Positions 2,756 through 39,440 of a stretch of 54,186 nucleotides of DNA are shown here, piece after piece; the stretch's first letter is position 1; the number at the start of each line of letters is the position of its first letter. Source of the stretch: a virus (Duplodnaviria; Caudoviricetes); IMG/VR virus record IMGVR_UViG_3300048786_000038, positions 1 to 54,186 of that record; one strand, written 5' to 3'. A model generated the notes under the pieces. The model was not told where the DNA came from. It searched no databases and saw nothing but the letters and a program-made list of their open reading frames with translations. The position numbers and the translations under genes were made by a program.

Positions 2756-4401
2756 GATACAAGCTCCCTTTCGCGCACGCCTTCTTCGATCTGCTTGCGC
2801 TTCCACCAGACCCAGCCGGGCTTGTAGCCCTTCTGCCGCGCAATCTCATGCAGCAGCGTCACGTTCACCGTAAGGCGCGGCGCATCGCGCTCGACCAGAT
2901 GCCAGTATACCCACATCGGCGCGCGCCCCAATTCCTCGGCCACGCGCAACAACTCCCCCACGGGCCCTTGGGCGATTCGCGGGGGATCCTCGGTGAGTGC
3001 CGAAAGCCATGCGTCGGTTGCCGCGCCTATGCGGTCCTGCACGTCACGGCGTTCCTCGGGGGCAAGGGTCGTCCACGCCTTCGGGGCCGTTCGCTCGACA
3101 AGCGGGACGTCGAGCTCCATGACCTCCTGCTCCTCTACGGGCAGAAGCTTACATCGCCCCTTGCATGCGGGGTCGCGGCAATACTCGCCGTCACGGTAGG
3201 GGCAGAAGCGCATGGCATCGGTGGGCTCGGCACGCTCGCGCTTTTCGGTGCCCGTGAAGTTCCATTGGATATCGGGGACGAAAAACAGAGGCACCCCGGG
3301 GTATCGCGGATCGGTATGCGCTTTAATCATGTTCGCGTGGTCGATGAAAAACGCCTCCCGCTTGCCCGCGAAAGGGCGTAGCAGGCGGCCGACCATCTGA
3401 AAGTACAGCGCGCGCGATAGCGTCGGGCGGATACTTGCGCCGTATTCGAGGTTCGGGATATCGACGCCGTACGTGGCAAGGTCGCAATTGACAAGGCCGT
3501 CGATGTGCTCCTCACGCATCGCGCGGAAGGCGAAATCGCGGTCGCCCTTCGGCATGTCGCCCCAAATCGCGCGGAAGTTGTATCCCGCGTCGTTGAAGGC
3601 GGCGGCCGTTTCCTTTGCGCTTTTCACACTTCGCGTGAAGATCAGCGCGGGGCGATTGCCTCCGTTCTCCCGCACGCCGTACTTGCGATAGAACTTGATG
3701 ACGTTGCCGTAGATCACTCGCTTATTGCGGTCGATGAAAGCCTCGTATTCCGCCTCTATGACCTCGGTGCCGCGCCAGTGCAGCTTGTCGAATCCCTCGA
3801 TAGGAGGTGGGGCAAAGTAGCGCAGGGGTGCAAGGAAATCGCGCTCGGTGAGCCACGGGATCGACGGCCCGTAGTGGATGCACTCATAGGGTCCGCCGAT
3901 GTTCACGCCGTCCACCATGAGGATGCCAAGCCCGCGGCCATCCAAACGCTCAGGGGTAGCGGTCAGCCCGATCACTTTCAGCGCGGGTTTCTCTGCGGAT
4001 GCGGTGTCGATGATGAGCGCCTGAGCGTCGTAGTACAGGTGCGCCTCGTCGAATATCAGCACATCGGGCCAACGCTTGATGCGATGCAGGCGCCGCAGGA
4101 GCGTGTCCTTCGATACGATATGCACGCGGAAGGCGCGCGACTCCTCCTTGCCTGCCGCGATGATGCCGTGCGGGATTTTCCAGCGTGCGAAATGCTTGCT
4201 TGCCTGCTTCAAGAGCTCGTTACGCGGGACGACAAACCAGATCACGCGCTCGGCCGAAAGGCCCATCGCCAGTGACACTATCTCCGCGACTTCCGCCGTT
4301 TTCCCGCCCCCCGTGGGTAGCTGGTGCAGGACGGAGCGATGCTCGCGGATCAGCGGGCGCAACTCGGCTATGTCGGTGGCCTGGTAGTCGCGGAGGCTCA
4401 T
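2752..4401 (-). CDS. SF2 DEAH-box helicase
   Basis: LRDYQ Q-motif, PTGGGKT, DEAH, LTATPER, QMVGRLLR; C-terminal KGYKPGWVW. Confidence 0.9.
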   Translation of the reverse strand: MSLRDYQATDIAELRPLIREHRSVLHQLPTGGGKTAEVAEIVSLAMGLSAERVIWFVVPRNELLKQASKHFARWKIPHGIIAAGKEESRAFRVHIVSKDTLLRRLHRIKRWPDVLIFDEAHLYYDAQALIIDTASAEKPALKVIGLTATPERLDGRGLGILMVDGVNIGGPYECIHYGPSIPWLTERDFLAPLRYFAPPPIEGFDKLHWRGTEVIEAEYEAFIDRNKRVIYGNVIKFYRKYGVRENGGNRPALIFTRSVKSAKETAAAFNDAGYNFRAIWGDMPKGDRDFAFRAMREEHIDGLVNCDLATYGVDIPNLEYGASIRPTLSRALYFQMVGRLLRPFAGKREAFFIDHANMIKAHTDPRYPGVPLFFVPDIQWNFTGTEKRERAEPTDAMRFCPYRDGEYCRDPACKGRCKLLPVEEQEVMELDVPLVERTAPKAWTTLAPEERRDVQDRIGAATDAWLSALTEDPPRIAQGPVGELLRVAEELGRAPMWVYWHLVERDAPRLTVNVTLLHEIARQKGYKPGWVWWKRKQIEEGVRERELVS

Positions 4402-4640
4402 TAGAATGGCATGTCCATGTCGTCTTCTGTTTCGAGTAGAACAGTGTGAGAAACATGCTCCTTCTCGAAGTATTCCAGAGCCTTGACAACGTAGAATTGT
4501 TTTCCTGGATTTCTCTCCGCAAGACGCTGCGCCTCTGATATCGCGTTTCTATATGAAAAATGGCGAAATGTTGGATTGTGACCGCCCGGTTCCCACACAA
4601 GCCAAAATACTTCCTCATGATTAGGTACTTGATTTGGCAT
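4401..4640 (-). CDS. Small phage protein
   Basis: ORF abutting both neighbours; AT-rich; EAQRLA..NPGKQFYV pattern. Confidence 0.6.
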   Translation of the reverse strand: MPNQVPNHEEVFWLVWEPGGHNPTFRHFSYRNAISEAQRLAERNPGKQFYVVKALEYFEKEHVSHTVLLETEDDMDMPF

Positions 4641-33949: not shown

Positions 33950-35572
33950 ATGCCACTATCACTGACCTCTGAGGCCGCTGCGGCAGGCGGTGGCGTACAG
34001 AACACACAGTTTGCACCCGCCGTCCAGGACATCCAGCGGAACATCGTCATCGTAGGCACCTTCAACCCGGCACTTGCCGCGGGGCTCACGGCAGAGACCG
34101 CCTACGGTCCGTATACCTCGTTGACGCTGATCGGCCAGCTGTTCGGCAGCGGCTACATGATCCATCGCCTTGCAACGGCCATCTTCGCGGGCCTCGGCGC
34201 CGGCGGCCCTCAAGTATGGGTCATCCCGCAGGCGGAAGTCGGAGGCGCGGCTGCAACCTCCTCGACGTTTGCAATCACCGGCCCGGCAACGGCCGCCGGC
34301 GTGCTTGCCGTCTACGTCGACAACATCCGCTACGCGGTGACCGTGAACAACGGTGACAGTGCGGCGACCATCGGCGGCAACCTGCTTGCACTCATCAACG
34401 CCGACCTCACCTGCCCCTGCGTGGCAACGGGTGGTGCAACCGTGACGCTGACCTCGAACTCGAAAGGGCCGTGGGGCAACTCGATCCCCGTGGCGATCAA
34501 CATCCAGTCAGGCGACGCACTTCCCACGGGCGTCTCCGTGGTGGTCACCGCACTCTCAGGCGGAACGGGCGTCCCCGTCATGGCGAATGCTCTGTCCAAC
34601 GGCCTGGGGACGCTGAACGGGTCGAACGCGAACACGCTGCCCAACGGCAACTGGATGACCGACCTCGTGCACGGCTACCTTGCCGCGGGCACCACCATGA
34701 CGACCACCGCGCAGGACCAGACCACGACCGCGGCGATAAGCGCGTACAACGGCCTTGCCAACGCATCGCCTCCGATCGGATGCTACGATCACCTCGTGGG
34801 CAAGCCCTTCCGCTGCATCCTCGGGGACGTGACGAACTCCGCCTCCCTTCCCTCGGCGCTCACATCGTTTGCCACGACCAACACGTACGACCGAACCGAC
34901 GCCATCCTCTGCGTCCCCGGCTCGCGCACGCACCCCTGCGAGATCGCCGCCAACGCGACGGCCGCAATCAACGCGCGTGCCGCATCCGTTTCCTCGCGTC
35001 CCTATGTCGGGGTAGTGCTTTCGGGCGTGGAAGCCGGGCCGACAGGGATGTGGACGACGCAGTACGCCAACCGCGACTCGGCGGTCAAGGCAGGCATTTC
35101 GCCTACCATCGTGCAGGGCGGCTACGTGGTGTTGCAGAACGTCGTCACCTTCTACAGTGGCAACGCATCGGTGGCGGCAACCTCCAACGGCTACCGCGAA
35201 TGGGTGAACCTCTGTAAGCTGCAAAACATCATCTGGAGCATGATCTCCACGTTCCGTAACGCCAAGTGGACGGGCTTTACCATCGTGCAGGACAAATCGC
35301 AGGTCACCGACCCCTACGCGAAACAGTGGGTACGCGACGTCAACGATGTCACCGCCGAGCTGGTAGGGCTTGCGCTTCTCTGGTACGGCAAGGCGTGGAT
35401 TTACAACGCCACAACCACGATCAACGGCCTGATGTCGACGACCACACCGGCGGTCACGCTTCGGCCCGCGGGGGACGGCTTCACGTGCTCGCTCCCCGGG
35501 ATCCTCTCGGGTGTCGGCAACATCATCGACAGCACGTTCAACTTCGATATCTCGCTGGCCGCGGTGAGCTAA
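33950..35572 (+). CDS. Contractile tail sheath (Mu gpL-like)
   Basis: LFGSGYMIHRL, KGPWGN, RDSAVKAGISPT, NVVTFY. Confidence 0.9.
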   Translation: MPLSLTSEAAAAGGGVQNTQFAPAVQDIQRNIVIVGTFNPALAAGLTAETAYGPYTSLTLIGQLFGSGYMIHRLATAIFAGLGAGGPQVWVIPQAEVGGAAATSSTFAITGPATAAGVLAVYVDNIRYAVTVNNGDSAATIGGNLLALINADLTCPCVATGGATVTLTSNSKGPWGNSIPVAINIQSGDALPTGVSVVVTALSGGTGVPVMANALSNGLGTLNGSNANTLPNGNWMTDLVHGYLAAGTTMTTTAQDQTTTAAISAYNGLANASPPIGCYDHLVGKPFRCILGDVTNSASLPSALTSFATTNTYDRTDAILCVPGSRTHPCEIAANATAAINARAASVSSRPYVGVVLSGVEAGPTGMWTTQYANRDSAVKAGISPTIVQGGYVVLQNVVTFYSGNASVAATSNGYREWVNLCKLQNIIWSMISTFRNAKWTGFTIVQDKSQVTDPYAKQWVRDVNDVTAELVGLALLWYGKAWIYNATTTINGLMSTTTPAVTLRPAGDGFTCSLPGILSGVGNIIDSTFNFDISLAAVS

Positions 35573-35585
35573 GGGGGAGGATGAA

Positions 35586-35762
35586 ATGGAAGACGTACAG
35601 GTAACCGAGGCCGACGCCGCGCAGATCACGGCGATTGCCGCATACCTTCAAGGGCTTGACGGGGCAGCGCGCACGCCCGCTGACATCATCGAGCTTGCAC
35701 TGGGCATGCTCCTGTTCACGCGCCCCGATATCGCCGCCGCGCAGGGGGTAACCAATGGCTGA
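35586..35762 (+). CDS. Small helical protein (58 aa) between sheath and tube
   Basis: Read manually; GGAGG Shine-Dalgarno; stop overlaps the tube start. Confidence 0.6.
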   Translation: MEDVQVTEADAAQITAIAAYLQGLDGAARTPADIIELALGMLLFTRPDIAAAQGVTNG

Positions 35763-36138
35763 TGTCACGCTTTCCGCAACCTTCGCCGACGGCACGATCA
35801 TCGTAACCGCTGGCTTCATTCACATCGAGGACTGGAAGTCTGCCGACCAGAAAATGACGTTGACCCTGTTCCCGCGTAACAACGTCTGGCAGACTTTCGT
35901 CGGCTCGCTTACCGACACCTCTGGGTCGCTGCGGAATATTGATATCGCGGGTGTGCCCTATCGCGTGATCGGTGACACTGACGTGACGATGATACCGTCG
36001 AACTTCAAAAACGAGGCGGTCGCCACATCGGGCTCGAACATCCGAAAGATGACGCGCGTGGTAAGCGAGTTGCGCGATGTCATCATCGAGTGCAACGCCG
36101 CAGAGCGCGTGACGCTCGTGAACATCGCAAACAACTGA
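35755..36138 (+). CDS. Tail tube protein, apparently circularly permuted
   Basis: Lies between sheath and chaperone; contains SGSLRNIDIAG...NEAVATSG..RKM...NAAER tube-family motifs. Confidence 0.75.
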   Translation: MADVTLSATFADGTIIVTAGFIHIEDWKSADQKMTLTLFPRNNVWQTFVGSLTDTSGSLRNIDIAGVPYRVIGDTDVTMIPSNFKNEAVATSGSNIRKMTRVVSELRDVIIECNAAERVTLVNIANN

Positions 36139-36162
36139 TCGAAACTTTCATGGAGGTGAGAC

Positions 36163-36555
36163 ATGGAATACAAGCTTTCCGAGGACGTGGCAACCGCCGA
36201 GATTGACGAACTGCTGGATCATTACCAGATCGATGCCGCAGACGTAGAGCAGGTGAGGGCAAAGCTTATCCGCTTCTGCCGTCTGGGGCTCGTGGAGAAC
36301 GTCAAGGACGGCGCGGAGTTCAAGGTGCGGCAGAACTTCCTTTACCCGCCGGGCGAGGTCAAGGCCGTCACCTATGCCGAGGTCCACGGCAAGCACAAAA
36401 TCGCCATGGACGAGCACAAGGCAACCGCCGCCTACACGCGCATCTACTCCCTGATGGCTTCACTTTCGGGCCTTCCGATCGACGCATTCAAGGACCTCAA
36501 GAGCGTCGACATATCGGTGGTGGAGTGCCTGGGCGCGGTTTTTATCGCGGGGTAG
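36163..36555 (+). CDS. Tail assembly chaperone
   Basis: Position before the tape measure gene; ends DISVVECLGAVF. Confidence 0.8.
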   Translation: MEYKLSEDVATAEIDELLDHYQIDAADVEQVRAKLIRFCRLGLVENVKDGAEFKVRQNFLYPPGEVKAVTYAEVHGKHKIAMDEHKATAAYTRIYSLMASLSGLPIDAFKDLKSVDISVVECLGAVFIAG

Positions 36556-36713
36556 AGCGGATGCACCAGTGGATGGGCAATCTGTTCTACCGGGGGGCAA
36601 TACCCTCAGAGATCGAAGGCATGAGCTTCGGGAGCATCCACTATTGGAACGACTGGCATAACCTGATGAGAAGGGCCGAGGAAGATGCCGCGCGGAAGCT
36701 GAAAGGAAAGTAA
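36537..36713 (+). CDS. Chaperone -1 frameshift extension (gpGT-like)
   Basis: G GTT TTT at 36537-36543; -1 frame open with PSEIEGM...YW. Confidence 0.7.
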   Translation, partial: GFYRGVERMHQWMGNLFYRGAIPSEIEGMSFGSIHYWNDWHNLMRRAEEDAARKLKGK

Positions 36714-38138
36714 GTGCCTGATTTTGCCGTTCGCGCCACAATATCAGCTACCGACAAATTGAGCGGCGTCTTTGCTCGCATGGAAAAGAACGTCGGCCAT
36801 TTCGGGTCGATCTTCAAGGGCGTCCTTGCCGGGAATCTTGCATCGTCAGCAATTCAGAAAGCAGTTGGAATGCTCGGCGAGCTTCCCAAAATGCTCGGAG
36901 AGTTTGCAGAGCGCGGAGATCAAATCGAACGAACCTCAAAGATACTCGGCATATCCGCGGACTCATTCCAGCGCCTCTCTTACGCCGCAAAGATTACGGG
37001 AACCCCTATTGATATAATGAGGGGCGGATTAGAAAAGCTGAACAAGGCCATTGGCCTCGGCGAGCGCGGCATGGGCCCACTCATCCATCAGGTCATGCGC
37101 CTTGACGGACCGCTGGGCGCTCAGTTGCGCACGGTAAAATCATCGGATCAAGCCTTCATGATGGTGGCCGACGCCGTGGCCCGAACCTCGGACAAGATGA
37201 AACAGGCGGCAATAGTGACCGCGGTGTTCGGCCGCTCGGGGCAAGAAATGCTCCCCATGCTCCTTGAGGGCAGCGCGGGACTTGAGAAGCTGAAAGCCTC
37301 GGCGAAGGATGTTATATCCGACAAGGCACTTTCTTCAGCCGATGTTTTCCGAAAGAACATGATCGACCTCAAGGAAAACGTGCAGGCGCTAAAGGATCGC
37401 GTTCTTTCTTTTGCCATAACACTCGCCGAGAAGTATCTGCCCCCGATCATGAAATGGCTCGATGCGAACCGCGAGATCATCGCCACCAAGATCGAGAACT
37501 TCATCGACCGATTTGCAACCGCCCTTGAAAACGCGCGCCCCGTTTTGCAATTTCTCTTGAAGGCGGCAGGATGGCTCATCAGCAACTGGCCCGTGCTCGG
37601 CGCCGTATATCTCGGATGGATCGCCGCGCAGATCGCGCTGGACGCCGCGCTGGATGCAAACCCCATCGGGCTGATCACCCTTGCAATCCAGGCGATGATC
37701 GTTGAGGTCCTCATCGTCATCCGCTACTGGCACGAGATCACCTCTGCCCTCGAAGCTTCATGGAATTGGTTCAATAAGCTTTTCGGGAATCCTTGGATAA
37801 AGATTGCCATGGCTGCCCTTGCGGAGCCGTTCCTCTTGGTCGCCTCTGTCATACAGACGATTATTGATCTCATCCAAGGCAAGGGACTCAGCTCGTTCAA
37901 GGATCTTATCAAGGCAGCGGGTCCTATTGGGATCGCCCTTGATTTGCTTGGGGTCGGAGGCGGAGCTAATGCCGGACACATTGCAGGTCCCGCGCGCGCA
38001 CCGAACGAAGGCGGCATGTCGAATTGGAATTTCATCAACCAGGTGAATGTCGATAATTCAAGGGCTCCCGGCGTGAGTTCTCAAGTTTACGTAGCCCCCC
38101 CCATCACCGGACACCCTGGCTATCAGAGCGAAGGATAG
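36714..38138 (+). CDS. Tape measure protein
   Basis: ISATDKLS, FGRSGQEMLP, ANPIGLI. Confidence 0.9.
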   Translation: MPDFAVRATISATDKLSGVFARMEKNVGHFGSIFKGVLAGNLASSAIQKAVGMLGELPKMLGEFAERGDQIERTSKILGISADSFQRLSYAAKITGTPIDIMRGGLEKLNKAIGLGERGMGPLIHQVMRLDGPLGAQLRTVKSSDQAFMMVADAVARTSDKMKQAAIVTAVFGRSGQEMLPMLLEGSAGLEKLKASAKDVISDKALSSADVFRKNMIDLKENVQALKDRVLSFAITLAEKYLPPIMKWLDANREIIATKIENFIDRFATALENARPVLQFLLKAAGWLISNWPVLGAVYLGWIAAQIALDAALDANPIGLITLAIQAMIVEVLIVIRYWHEITSALEASWNWFNKLFGNPWIKIAMAALAEPFLLVASVIQTIIDLIQGKGLSSFKDLIKAAGPIGIALDLLGVGGGANAGHIAGPARAPNEGGMSNWNFINQVNVDNSRAPGVSSQVYVAPPITGHPGYQSEG

Positions 38139-39440
38139 ATGAGCGACATACCTTCGATCCCGTGGATGCAACGCCTCCAGCCGCTCATCACGCTCACCGC
38201 TCCCAACGGCGTAACGCAATACTCATGCTACTGGCGCGGCGATGACATCTCGGGTGCGAAGGCAGTCCCGCAGTTCCGCTACCCGCTGTACGACGGGGTG
38301 AAGGTCCAGGACCTCGGCGCCGACGGCCTGTCATGGCCGCTGACGTTGACCTTCGAAGGCGACAACAACGACCTCACCGCGATGGCCTTTGCGAAAGATT
38401 TCCTCGCACAGCGCGGCAACTGGGCCGTACAGCATCCCGTCTACGGCACGCACAACCTGCAAGGCATTACGGTAAAGATTCTCGCGCACCCCGTTGACTC
38501 GGGAAACATCACGCAGGTGGAAACGACGTGGATCGAGCCCGCCGATGACAGCATAGGGACTTCCGTCGGCGAGCTCGGCGCACAGATCGTCGCACAGGCG
38601 GAGACGGCAAACGCATCCGCGCAGGCGGAACTTGCACAGATCAACACCGCGGCGACGAACATCTCGCAGACCGTTTTCTCGGGCTTGCAGCAGGGACTCA
38701 ACTTCCTCGGCCTTTCCACGTTGCAGTCAATCGTCGCAACAGCCTCACTCGTGCAGGGGGCAATCAGCCAGACCTACCAACAGCTTGTCGCGGCAATCGC
38801 CGCCCCCGGGCTTGCACTGGATACCCTGGCGCAATTGTTTCAGACCATCGTGCAGGCACCCGCTGCGGTGGCCGCAACCGAGACCGCGCTTGTCGCAGGC
38901 TACACGCAGTTCATCGGCGACATAGTGGATTCGATCACGGGACTGATCACCCCGTCGGGAATCGCCGCCACGCAGACCAACGAGATGATCCTCGGCGCGG
39001 CGGTGACCGGCGCATGCCTTGCGGTTGCAAACAACGCCCCTGCCACGCGCGAGGAAGCGGTGACCGCGATCAACAATATCTCCTCCCTCTGGCAGGACGT
39101 GCTTTCGGCACTGGATGCCGTGCAAAATGCAAGTGCCGCGAACGACATCACGCAGTCGTATGTCACGTTCAGCACAACCTACACCGACCTTGCGCAGCTT
39201 GTAGGACTCACGCTGCAATACCTCCTGTCGGTGATCTTCGACCTCAAGGTGGCATACACGTTCACCCTTGACCGCCCGCGAGTGCCCTTCGAGATCGCGT
39301 GCACGGAGTACGGAAGCGAGTACGATGCGGCAGGCAATTCCTACGTCGACCTGTTCATCGCATCAAATCACCTCACGGGTGAAAGCGTCATGCTCCTGTA
39401 CCCCGGCACGCAGGTGACGATCTACTCGGTGGCCGGATGA
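38139..39440 (+). CDS. DNA circularisation/baseplate protein (Mu gpN-like)
   Basis: FRYP...VQDLG, QHPVYG. Confidence 0.8.
   Translation: MSDIPSIPWMQRLQPLITLTAPNGVTQYSCYWRGDDISGAKAVPQFRYPLYDGVKVQDLGADGLSWPLTLTFEGDNNDLTAMAFAKDFLAQRGNWAVQHPVYGTHNLQGITVKILAHPVDSGNITQVETTWIEPADDSIGTSVGELGAQIVAQAETANASAQAELAQINTAATNISQTVFSGLQQGLNFLGLSTLQSIVATASLVQGAISQTYQQLVAAIAAPGLALDTLAQLFQTIVQAPAAVAATETALVAGYTQFIGDIVDSITGLITPSGIAATQTNEMILGAAVTGACLAVANNAPATREEAVTAINNISSLWQDVLSALDAVQNASAANDITQSYVTFSTTYTDLAQLVGLTLQYLLSVIFDLKVAYTFTLDRPRVPFEIACTEYGSEYDAAGNSYVDLFIASNHLTGESVMLLYPGTQVTIYSVAG

Follow-up and report, generated by a model that had tools for sequence, protein, structure and literature searches.

The tail module and its tube gene

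The window analysed here, i.e. the whole 54,186-nucleotide stretch of DNA, comes from a phage of an uncultured group found in peat and permafrost metagenomes. Its tail module, all of it on the + strand, includes a tail sheath gene (33950..35572, 540 amino acids; PHROG 165 tail sheath, E 9.5e-55), the gene of interest (35755..36138, 127 amino acids, hereafter P0001), whose swapped profile matches mark it as encoding a circularly permuted tail tube protein, a tail assembly chaperone-like gene (36163..36555, 130 amino acids; PHROG 4648 and a weak Phage_TAC_7 match), the tape measure protein gene (36714..38138, 474 amino acids; PHROG 8125, E 4.5e-33), and a gene for a Mu gp43-like tube initiator or 'DNA circulation' protein (38139..39440). 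The product of the last of these matches PF07157 DNA_circ_N with 22.4 bits (cut-off 21) and PHROG 184, a baseplate-hub match, at E 2.7e-23; the role of Mu gp43 as a tube initiator is taken from PMC11915804. The 54-kb window further contains genes for portal, protease, capsid, hub and wedge proteins.

The tube ATG is preceded, 6 nt upstream, by the Shine–Dalgarno-like sequence AGGGGG (35743..35748, +; read from the sequence), and the N-terminus that it opens, MADVTL, is identical in 7/7 close homologues. A six-frame profile search of the window found this gene as its only tube-family ORF. Related loci were searched with the normal-order form of the tube as well, using a 10-sequence subset of the 108-sequence alignment described below; there is one tube-family ORF per locus in 36/36 loci, and in the window and all related loci the tube gene lies between the sheath gene and the chaperone and tape measure genes.

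The neighbours of the tube gene deserve a few words of their own. Overlapping the chaperone-like gene, in another frame, is a 62-aa ORF (36525..36713, +) that ends exactly at the start of the tape measure gene; the same ORF pair occurs in related loci, and its layout would be that of a candidate programmed-frameshift chaperone pair. Inside the chaperone-like gene also falls a 30-nt stretch, 36424..36453, that recurs in DNA run X9, once in a contig of 58 nt and once at the end of a contig of 5 kb, followed each time by a 28-nt loose end. We take this loose end to resemble a CRISPR repeat of type I-E style, and the copy in run X9 probably represents a spacer that a member of the same community carries against this phage, which makes it a possible clue to the host. 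On the other side, between the sheath and tube genes, lies a small ORF of 58 amino acids (35586..35762, +) that shares 8 nt with the beginning of the tube gene. In the normal-order locus L008, an ORF of 57 amino acids in the corresponding position shows 40% identity to it, and in L011 (also normal-order) the C-terminal part of an ORF of 117 amino acids shows 49%; the small ORF is absent from L001 and L003 and has no Pfam or PHROG match. As judged from these comparisons, it is a conserved, optional small gene of this phage group and no tube remnant; we had considered it as the relic of a duplicated tube half and rejected the idea, as it has no tube-profile match and has homologues in normal-order loci.

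Two blocks in swapped order

The initial annotation had assigned to 35755..36138 a tube protein in which the usual C-terminal block comes first, and had expected two swapped matches to tube homologues from the ORF and a single one from a doubled copy of its sequence. Our comparison started from a word search that returned seven proteins, including P0001, all of 127 amino acids. The profile of their alignment (A1), run against 1.84 billion representative proteins, matched 231 proteins at E<=1e-3, and the best 150 of these 231 profile matches were rescored locally together with the seven word-search proteins, making a set of 157. Fourteen of the 157, seven of them new and all 126–128 aa long, are colinear with the permuted profile over positions 1–127. 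The non-colinear proteins (143 of the 157) are mostly of ~125 aa, and 136 of the 143 show a swapped two-stretch pattern, in which profile positions 53–126 match residues ~3–76 and positions ~2–50 match residues ~78–125; both stretches reach i-E<1e-3 in 111 of the 136 proteins.

Seven proteins are exceptions. One of them, P0056, shows the swapped pattern too, with an N-terminal extension in addition, and P0076, P0103, P0135 and P0138 were matched over the first block only. P0017, at 81 aa, is best read as a short gene call of a permuted gene because its cluster mate, P0159, is permuted and complete at 127 aa, and P0149, a protein of 752 aa with seven weak stretches of ~9 bits each, was taken as an unrelated repeat protein. 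The extension of P0056 (160 aa, normal-order; cluster mates P0162 and P0163) spans ~20 hydrophobic-looking residues and is found on five contigs; it could be either a start-site miscall or real.

For the reciprocal comparison we built a profile of 125 positions from 108 normal-order proteins, i.e. proteins with the usual chain order. Against this profile, residues 2–49 of P0001 (35758..35901, +) match positions 78–124 (i-E 2.9e-14), the C-terminal block of normal-order tubes, and residues 54–126 (35914..36132, +) match positions 3–75 (i-E 5.8e-25), the N-terminal block. This is the order that had been claimed. When the sequence of P0001 is doubled, a single full-length match appears, with profile positions 3–124 on residues 54–176 at 136 bits. 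The whole permuted set behaves in the same way: in 14/14 proteins the normal-order profile matches two swapped stretches of the sequence as it stands and, after doubling, a single full-length one over positions 3–124 (106–155 bits), as the initial annotation had anticipated, and a colinear full-length alignment to the normal-order tube profile was found for 0/14. Comparison of the two alignments by hhalign places permuted positions 53–127 on normal-order positions 4–78 with an E value of 8e-31. The swapped block order of P0001 is confirmed, far beyond chance, and it recurs in all 14 permuted proteins.

The total length is conserved, with 127 aa in P0001 for a profile of 125 positions, and joining the end of the chain to its start does restore the canonical order at normal length, as proposed; the full-length match of the doubled sequence says the same. 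The motifs that the initial annotation had listed for known tubes (GS.R, ENE...TSG, the helix, and the terminal P...W..F) are all present in the consensus of the 108 normal-order proteins.

Cut site and junction

Where is the chain cut, and what joins the old ends? The cut falls between profile positions 75 and 78, with ~2 positions removed. Four residues (50–53; 35902..35913, +) form the junction from the old C-terminus to the old N-terminus, where they replace profile positions 125, 1 and 2, for a net gain of ~1 residue. These profile-match coordinates make P0001 an almost exact rotation without a foreign linker, and the short linker that had been claimed between the blocks corresponds to these ~4 residues.

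Predicted models tell the same story in terms of secondary structure. The model of the normal-order protein P0015 runs through strands, a long low-confidence hairpin and a helix at residues 65–76, and then four strands. In the model of P0001 those four strands come first (residues 4–10, 15–28, 33–40 and 46–49, all within the block 2–49), the block 54–126 supplies the remaining strands and the long hairpin, and the outer helix, residues 115–126, comes last; that the protein ends after the helix was part of the original proposal. Both models thus contain one and the same series of elements, rotated in P0001, and their order places the cut of P0001 directly after the outer helix. Confidence is lower in the block of residues 51–60, the junction area (pLDDT 63).

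Some structural background helps in reading this cut. In tail tubes, according to the review PMC8718954, the helices lie outside and parallel to the tube axis, the loop between beta2 and beta3 makes most of the inter-ring contacts, and in the YSD1 tube an entire additional domain is inserted between alpha1 and beta4. The loop that follows the outer helix is thus known to be permissive.

Family and fold

Is this protein a tail tube at all? Standard family searches give P0001 little more than a hint: its match to PHROG 4699 'tail tube protein' is weak (residues 55–114 to positions 5–72, E 0.087), although it is already offset in the direction that the first reading had predicted, and P0001 has no match to a Pfam tube family at E<=1. 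The normal-order relatives are more telling. PHROG 4699 is matched colinearly over nearly the whole profile by 8/9 normal-order members (E 2.7e-8 to 1.3e-3), with no match for the normal-order P0024 or the permuted P0011; none of ten relatives (nine normal-order, one permuted) matches a Pfam tube family at E<=0.1, and searches of PDB sequences with profiles of the permuted (A1), sister (A2) and 108-sequence (A4) sets return no tube at E<=10.

For the fold we turn to the model of P0015, which was made from a 6-row alignment and has a pLDDT of 67.7. It matches 94 chains at Z>=5 and nine at Z>=8, and its structural matches include Hcp5 (Z 9.3), the Milano tube (Z 8.1) and Mu gp40 (9khy_G; Z 8.9, rmsd 4.6, 109 aligned residues, colinear from 6–125 to 7–118). 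In a Foldseek search with the same model, the top rank goes to Mu gp40 (E 6.7e-3, prob 1.0), and the tubes of pyocin R2 and lambda V come next. The model of P0001 has a higher pLDDT, 77.2, yet with the same aligner and library it matches a single chain at Z>=5, a PilZ-containing cellulose synthase, and none at Z>=8. Its matches to tube-like chains lie at Z 3.4–5.0 with order-dependent aligners, and for chains common to both lists Z is about halved from the normal-order to the permuted model, the two models being of different proteins: 8.1 against 4.2 for 8fop_B, 7.5 against 4.0 for 9b42_M, 6.7 against 3.9 for 8kee_S, 8.3 against 3.5 for 8z7k_A, and 7.7 against 3.4 for 6a2v_A. Such a drop is expected, because a rotated order defeats order-dependent aligners; it is not in itself proof of the fold. 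Foldseek of the permuted model against the PDB and BFVD finds nothing at E<=1e-3, the ESM Atlas yields no lead for the permuted protein (best feature score 0.77, own model pLDDT 0.34), and a complex prediction with three copies of the permuted protein and a 17-row alignment scored 0.43, 0.00 and 0.00.

By homology, gene position and the fold of its sisters, the P0001 family is a tail tube family; what fails is colinearity. We ascribe to the permuted order the fact that Pfam, PHROGs, Foldseek and tblastn fail or nearly fail on P0001. The initial annotation had likened this tube to those of the Mu gpM type, a likeness that holds for the fold (through the comparison of the sister model with Mu gp40) and for the layout of the tail module, and that does not extend to a Pfam tube family or to a sequence match in the PDB.

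Occurrence, authenticity and selection

The permuted gene is not a curiosity of one contig. The exact P0001 protein is recorded on 16 contigs and P0013 on 20, permuted genes occupy the same slot on seven distinct viral contigs, and further permuted proteins from translated viral contigs, together with P0159, share the architecture. Lengths of 126–128 aa are kept across permuted proteins that are 32–57% identical to P0001. At the level of sequencing runs, 14 DNA runs from 12 studies of peat and permafrost hold 99–100% of the sampled words of 35300–36600, all 14 being possible sources of the window's own DNA, and six RNA-library runs hold 19–73% of the same words. Contigs in two DNA runs, each from a different study, cover the ORF from end to end with 0 differences, indels or joints, and an 841-nt contig from an RNA library covers 35629–36450, likewise with 0 differences, indels or joints; transcription is not proven by this contig because an RNA library can contain DNA. 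The check across the locus that had been suggested is answered by these independent contigs, which cross the gene without a joint and give no indication of misassembly.

Pairwise comparisons of the permuted genes give dN/dS of 0–0.48 in 15/15 pairs, with dS saturated for most pairs; the close, informative pairs have a dN/dS of 0.16 and, in one case, dN of 0 with dS of 0.12. The permuted gene is real, recurs in independent sequences and is under selection. Taken together, the swapped and doubled matches and the spanning contigs uphold the earlier reading of a tail tube protein that has been circularly permuted in nature.

Among isolated phages, no homologue of either chain order is detectable: neither P0001 nor P0015 has a tblastn match in 50,697 phage records, and a scan of the contigs of 185,579 species genomes with the permuted alignment gave 74 pattern stretches and 0 relatives. 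The window's sheath is <30% identical to any sheath in the same 50,697 phage records, the nearest being those of Pseudoalteromonas and Vibrio phages. One pair of related loci differs close to the tube gene: the permuted tube proteins of L004 and L005 are identical, and L005 has, in comparison with L004, an extra 189-aa ORF (3994..4563) between the tube and the chaperone region, possibly a moron or a mobile element that inserted on the 3' side of the tube gene.

Polarity of the change and number of origins

Two trees, both unrooted, bear on how often the permutation arose. In a 122-row tree, the 14 permuted proteins fall within a starred clade of 20, whose normal-order members are P0015, P0016, P0028, P0039, P0060 and P0061, and 13/14 permuted proteins form one clade. 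A second tree of 52 rows holds 18 permuted, nine sister and 25 other normal-order rows, the last hand-picked across the clades of the 122-row tree, and it places 17/18 permuted rows in one starred clade with an SH-aLRT of 96. The exception is P0011, which lies in a polytomy beside the permuted clade of the 52-row tree and stands apart from the other permuted rows in both free trees. Constraining all 18 permuted rows to group together gives a tree that is 19.6 log-likelihood units better than the free one (p-AU 0.77); a single origin is therefore not rejected and in fact gives the best tree found.

The direction of the change follows from the breadth of the normal order: it is found throughout the wider family, in PHROG 4699 and in the solved tubes, so the permuted order is the derived one. 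Most likely, as far as these sequence comparisons indicate, a normal-order ancestor gave rise to the permuted form in a single event, in one lineage of uncultured phages from peat and permafrost. Sheath identity to the window's protein is 53–67% in the permuted-tube phages (42% for L036) and 33–45% in normal-order phages; given this range, the lineage has diversified widely since the permutation.

A permuted tube and how it may have arisen

We are confident that P0001 is a functional tube of a contractile, Mu-like tail and a circular permutation of the normal tube, probably with a single origin by duplication and fusion. The permuted protein would retain the same fold elements, i.e. a beta-sandwich, one outer helix and a long hairpin. 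Its chain starts at the strand that normally follows the helix and runs to the old C-terminus, from where a junction of ~4 residues leads into the old N-terminus, and it ends with the helix; in other words, the loop from the helix to the next strand is the cut, and the old termini are closed into a loop. Presumably, the protein still assembles into hexameric rings that enclose the tape measure protein within the sheath. A more elaborate arrangement, to which we give a rather small chance, is that the junction joins structural units of neighbours in the same or the next ring, giving a domain-swapped tube in which each fold unit is built from two chains. Such a tube would be interlaced and possibly more stable, and its new free ends would lie at the sheath-facing helix.

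The route that we favour for the permuted tube would begin with tandem duplication of the tube gene, proceed through in-frame fusion and end with the loss of the two outer halves. Duplication, fusion and truncation are the accepted general route for natural permutants, and the linker-free junction is compatible with it. A minority possibility, unlikely though worth keeping in mind, is that the permutation is real and was reached in another way, either by gene fission, reordering and re-fusion or by offset recombination between the tube genes of co-infecting phages. This alternative draws on the lack of intermediates: no fused, tandem or split form was seen among the best 150 of the 231 matches or in the 36 loci, a second tube-family ORF lies within 3–4 kb in 0/26 normal-order loci examined, and the only listed matches (again the best 150 of 231) longer than 141 aa are P0056, P0138 and the unrelated P0149. 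The absence of a fused double tube among the best matches is telling because such a protein should score at the top. The junction, only ~1 residue beyond the old termini, is also what any head-to-tail joining would be expected to leave. However, the split form that fission calls for is just as absent, for P0017, which we had considered as a split intermediate and rejected, is a short call of a gene whose cluster mate has the complete permuted chain of 127 aa; to swap two small neighbouring ORFs would take more events than tandem duplication, and it is duplication that is documented for other natural permutants.

Other readings question the gene's function, its polarity or its existence. Could the permuted gene be a non-essential or decaying paralogue, or have another role such as that of a tube-like adaptor, with the true tube elsewhere? 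Folds of the tube type also serve in terminators, initiators and hubs, as PMC11915804 describes, and the weak structural matches of the permuted model include neck and terminator proteins. Yet the 54 kb of the window, with genes for portal, protease, capsid, sheath, tape measure, hub and wedge, contain no tube-family ORF besides P0001, which sits in the tube position as its kin do in every related locus; its length of 126–128 aa is kept at 32–57% identity, and dN/dS is below 1, so we hold this reading to be very improbable. Slightly less probable still is that the permuted order is ancestral and the 'normal' order of ~125 aa derived within the family: the unrooted trees leave room for this polarity, but the permuted rows make up one small clade within a set of >100 normal-order cluster representatives, and PHROG 4699, Mu gp40, Hcp and other solved tubes are colinear with the normal order. 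The least probable reading, to which we give almost no weight, is an artefact of assembly or gene calling. The window is metagenome-derived and every matching DNA run may be a source of it; against this stand 14 distinct permuted proteins, viral-contig translations and P0159 of the same architecture, the ORF-spanning contigs of two DNA runs and one RNA library with 0 differences, and a conserved start with a ribosome-binding site.

Implications

A full-text literature search found no description of a permuted tube protein, only permuted genomes and unrelated proteins. The word stem 'permut' is not mentioned in the tail-protein review PMC8718954, and the main text of a 2026 permutation survey (PMC13552848) names no phage, tube or Hcp; its supplements may list cases. 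The tube protein ranks among the best conserved components of phage tails, and its fold recurs in pyocins, in type VI secretion and in further contractile injection systems; every solved tube listed as a match to the P0015 model has the same chain order. The lineage described here has retained the permuted form while sheath identity to the window's protein fell to 42% at the lowest; free N- and C-termini at the usual places are, it would appear, not required for tube assembly.

We see two uses for this observation. The loop after the outer helix is a natural break point that may be useful for tube display or insertion engineering. Additionally, permuted and normal-order sisters with homologous sheaths represent a natural pair for studying how chain connectivity relates to folding, ring stacking and sheath contact.

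Relation to known tubes and known permutants

The nearest comparison is with PHROG 4699 and the normal-order relatives of ~125 aa, e.g. P0015 and P0016, which are homologous in both halves, have the same length and sit at the same gene position, and the normal-order relatives are accompanied by homologous sheath, tape measure and hub genes; what sets P0001 apart from all of them is that its chain is rotated, with the start after the helix and the old termini fused. Among solved phage tubes, Mu gp40 (PDB 9khy, 9ki1 and 9lj8) is the closest to the normal-order relatives, with 109/117 residues colinear, and Mu likewise resembles the window's tail module in the gp43-like gene downstream. However, there is no detectable sequence similarity to Mu gp40, and the window's protein is permuted. 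The Mu gp40 hexamer is a 24-stranded barrel in which a hairpin reaches the next ring and a sheath helix contacts the tube, according to PMC11915804. The tube protein YSD1_22, as described in PMC8718954, tolerates a large change in the loop after the outer helix, exactly where the permuted chain is cut, although there the change is an insertion without a chain break and the tube is that of a siphophage. More distantly, Hcp of type VI secretion and the lambda gpV, pyocin R2 and Milano tubes share their fold with the normal-order relatives (Z 7–9.3) and are all colinear with the normal order, whereas the permuted model reaches only Z 3.4–4.2 on the same chains.

Natural circular permutants are known from DNA methyltransferases, saposin/swaposin, PDZ domains and lectins, and they are mostly enzymes or binding domains. 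P0001 bears the same signature as these, i.e. swapped blocks as the protein stands and a full-length match when it is doubled. Unlike them, it would be the repeating subunit of a helical tube, a protein that has to keep its contacts within the ring, between rings, with the sheath and with the tape measure.
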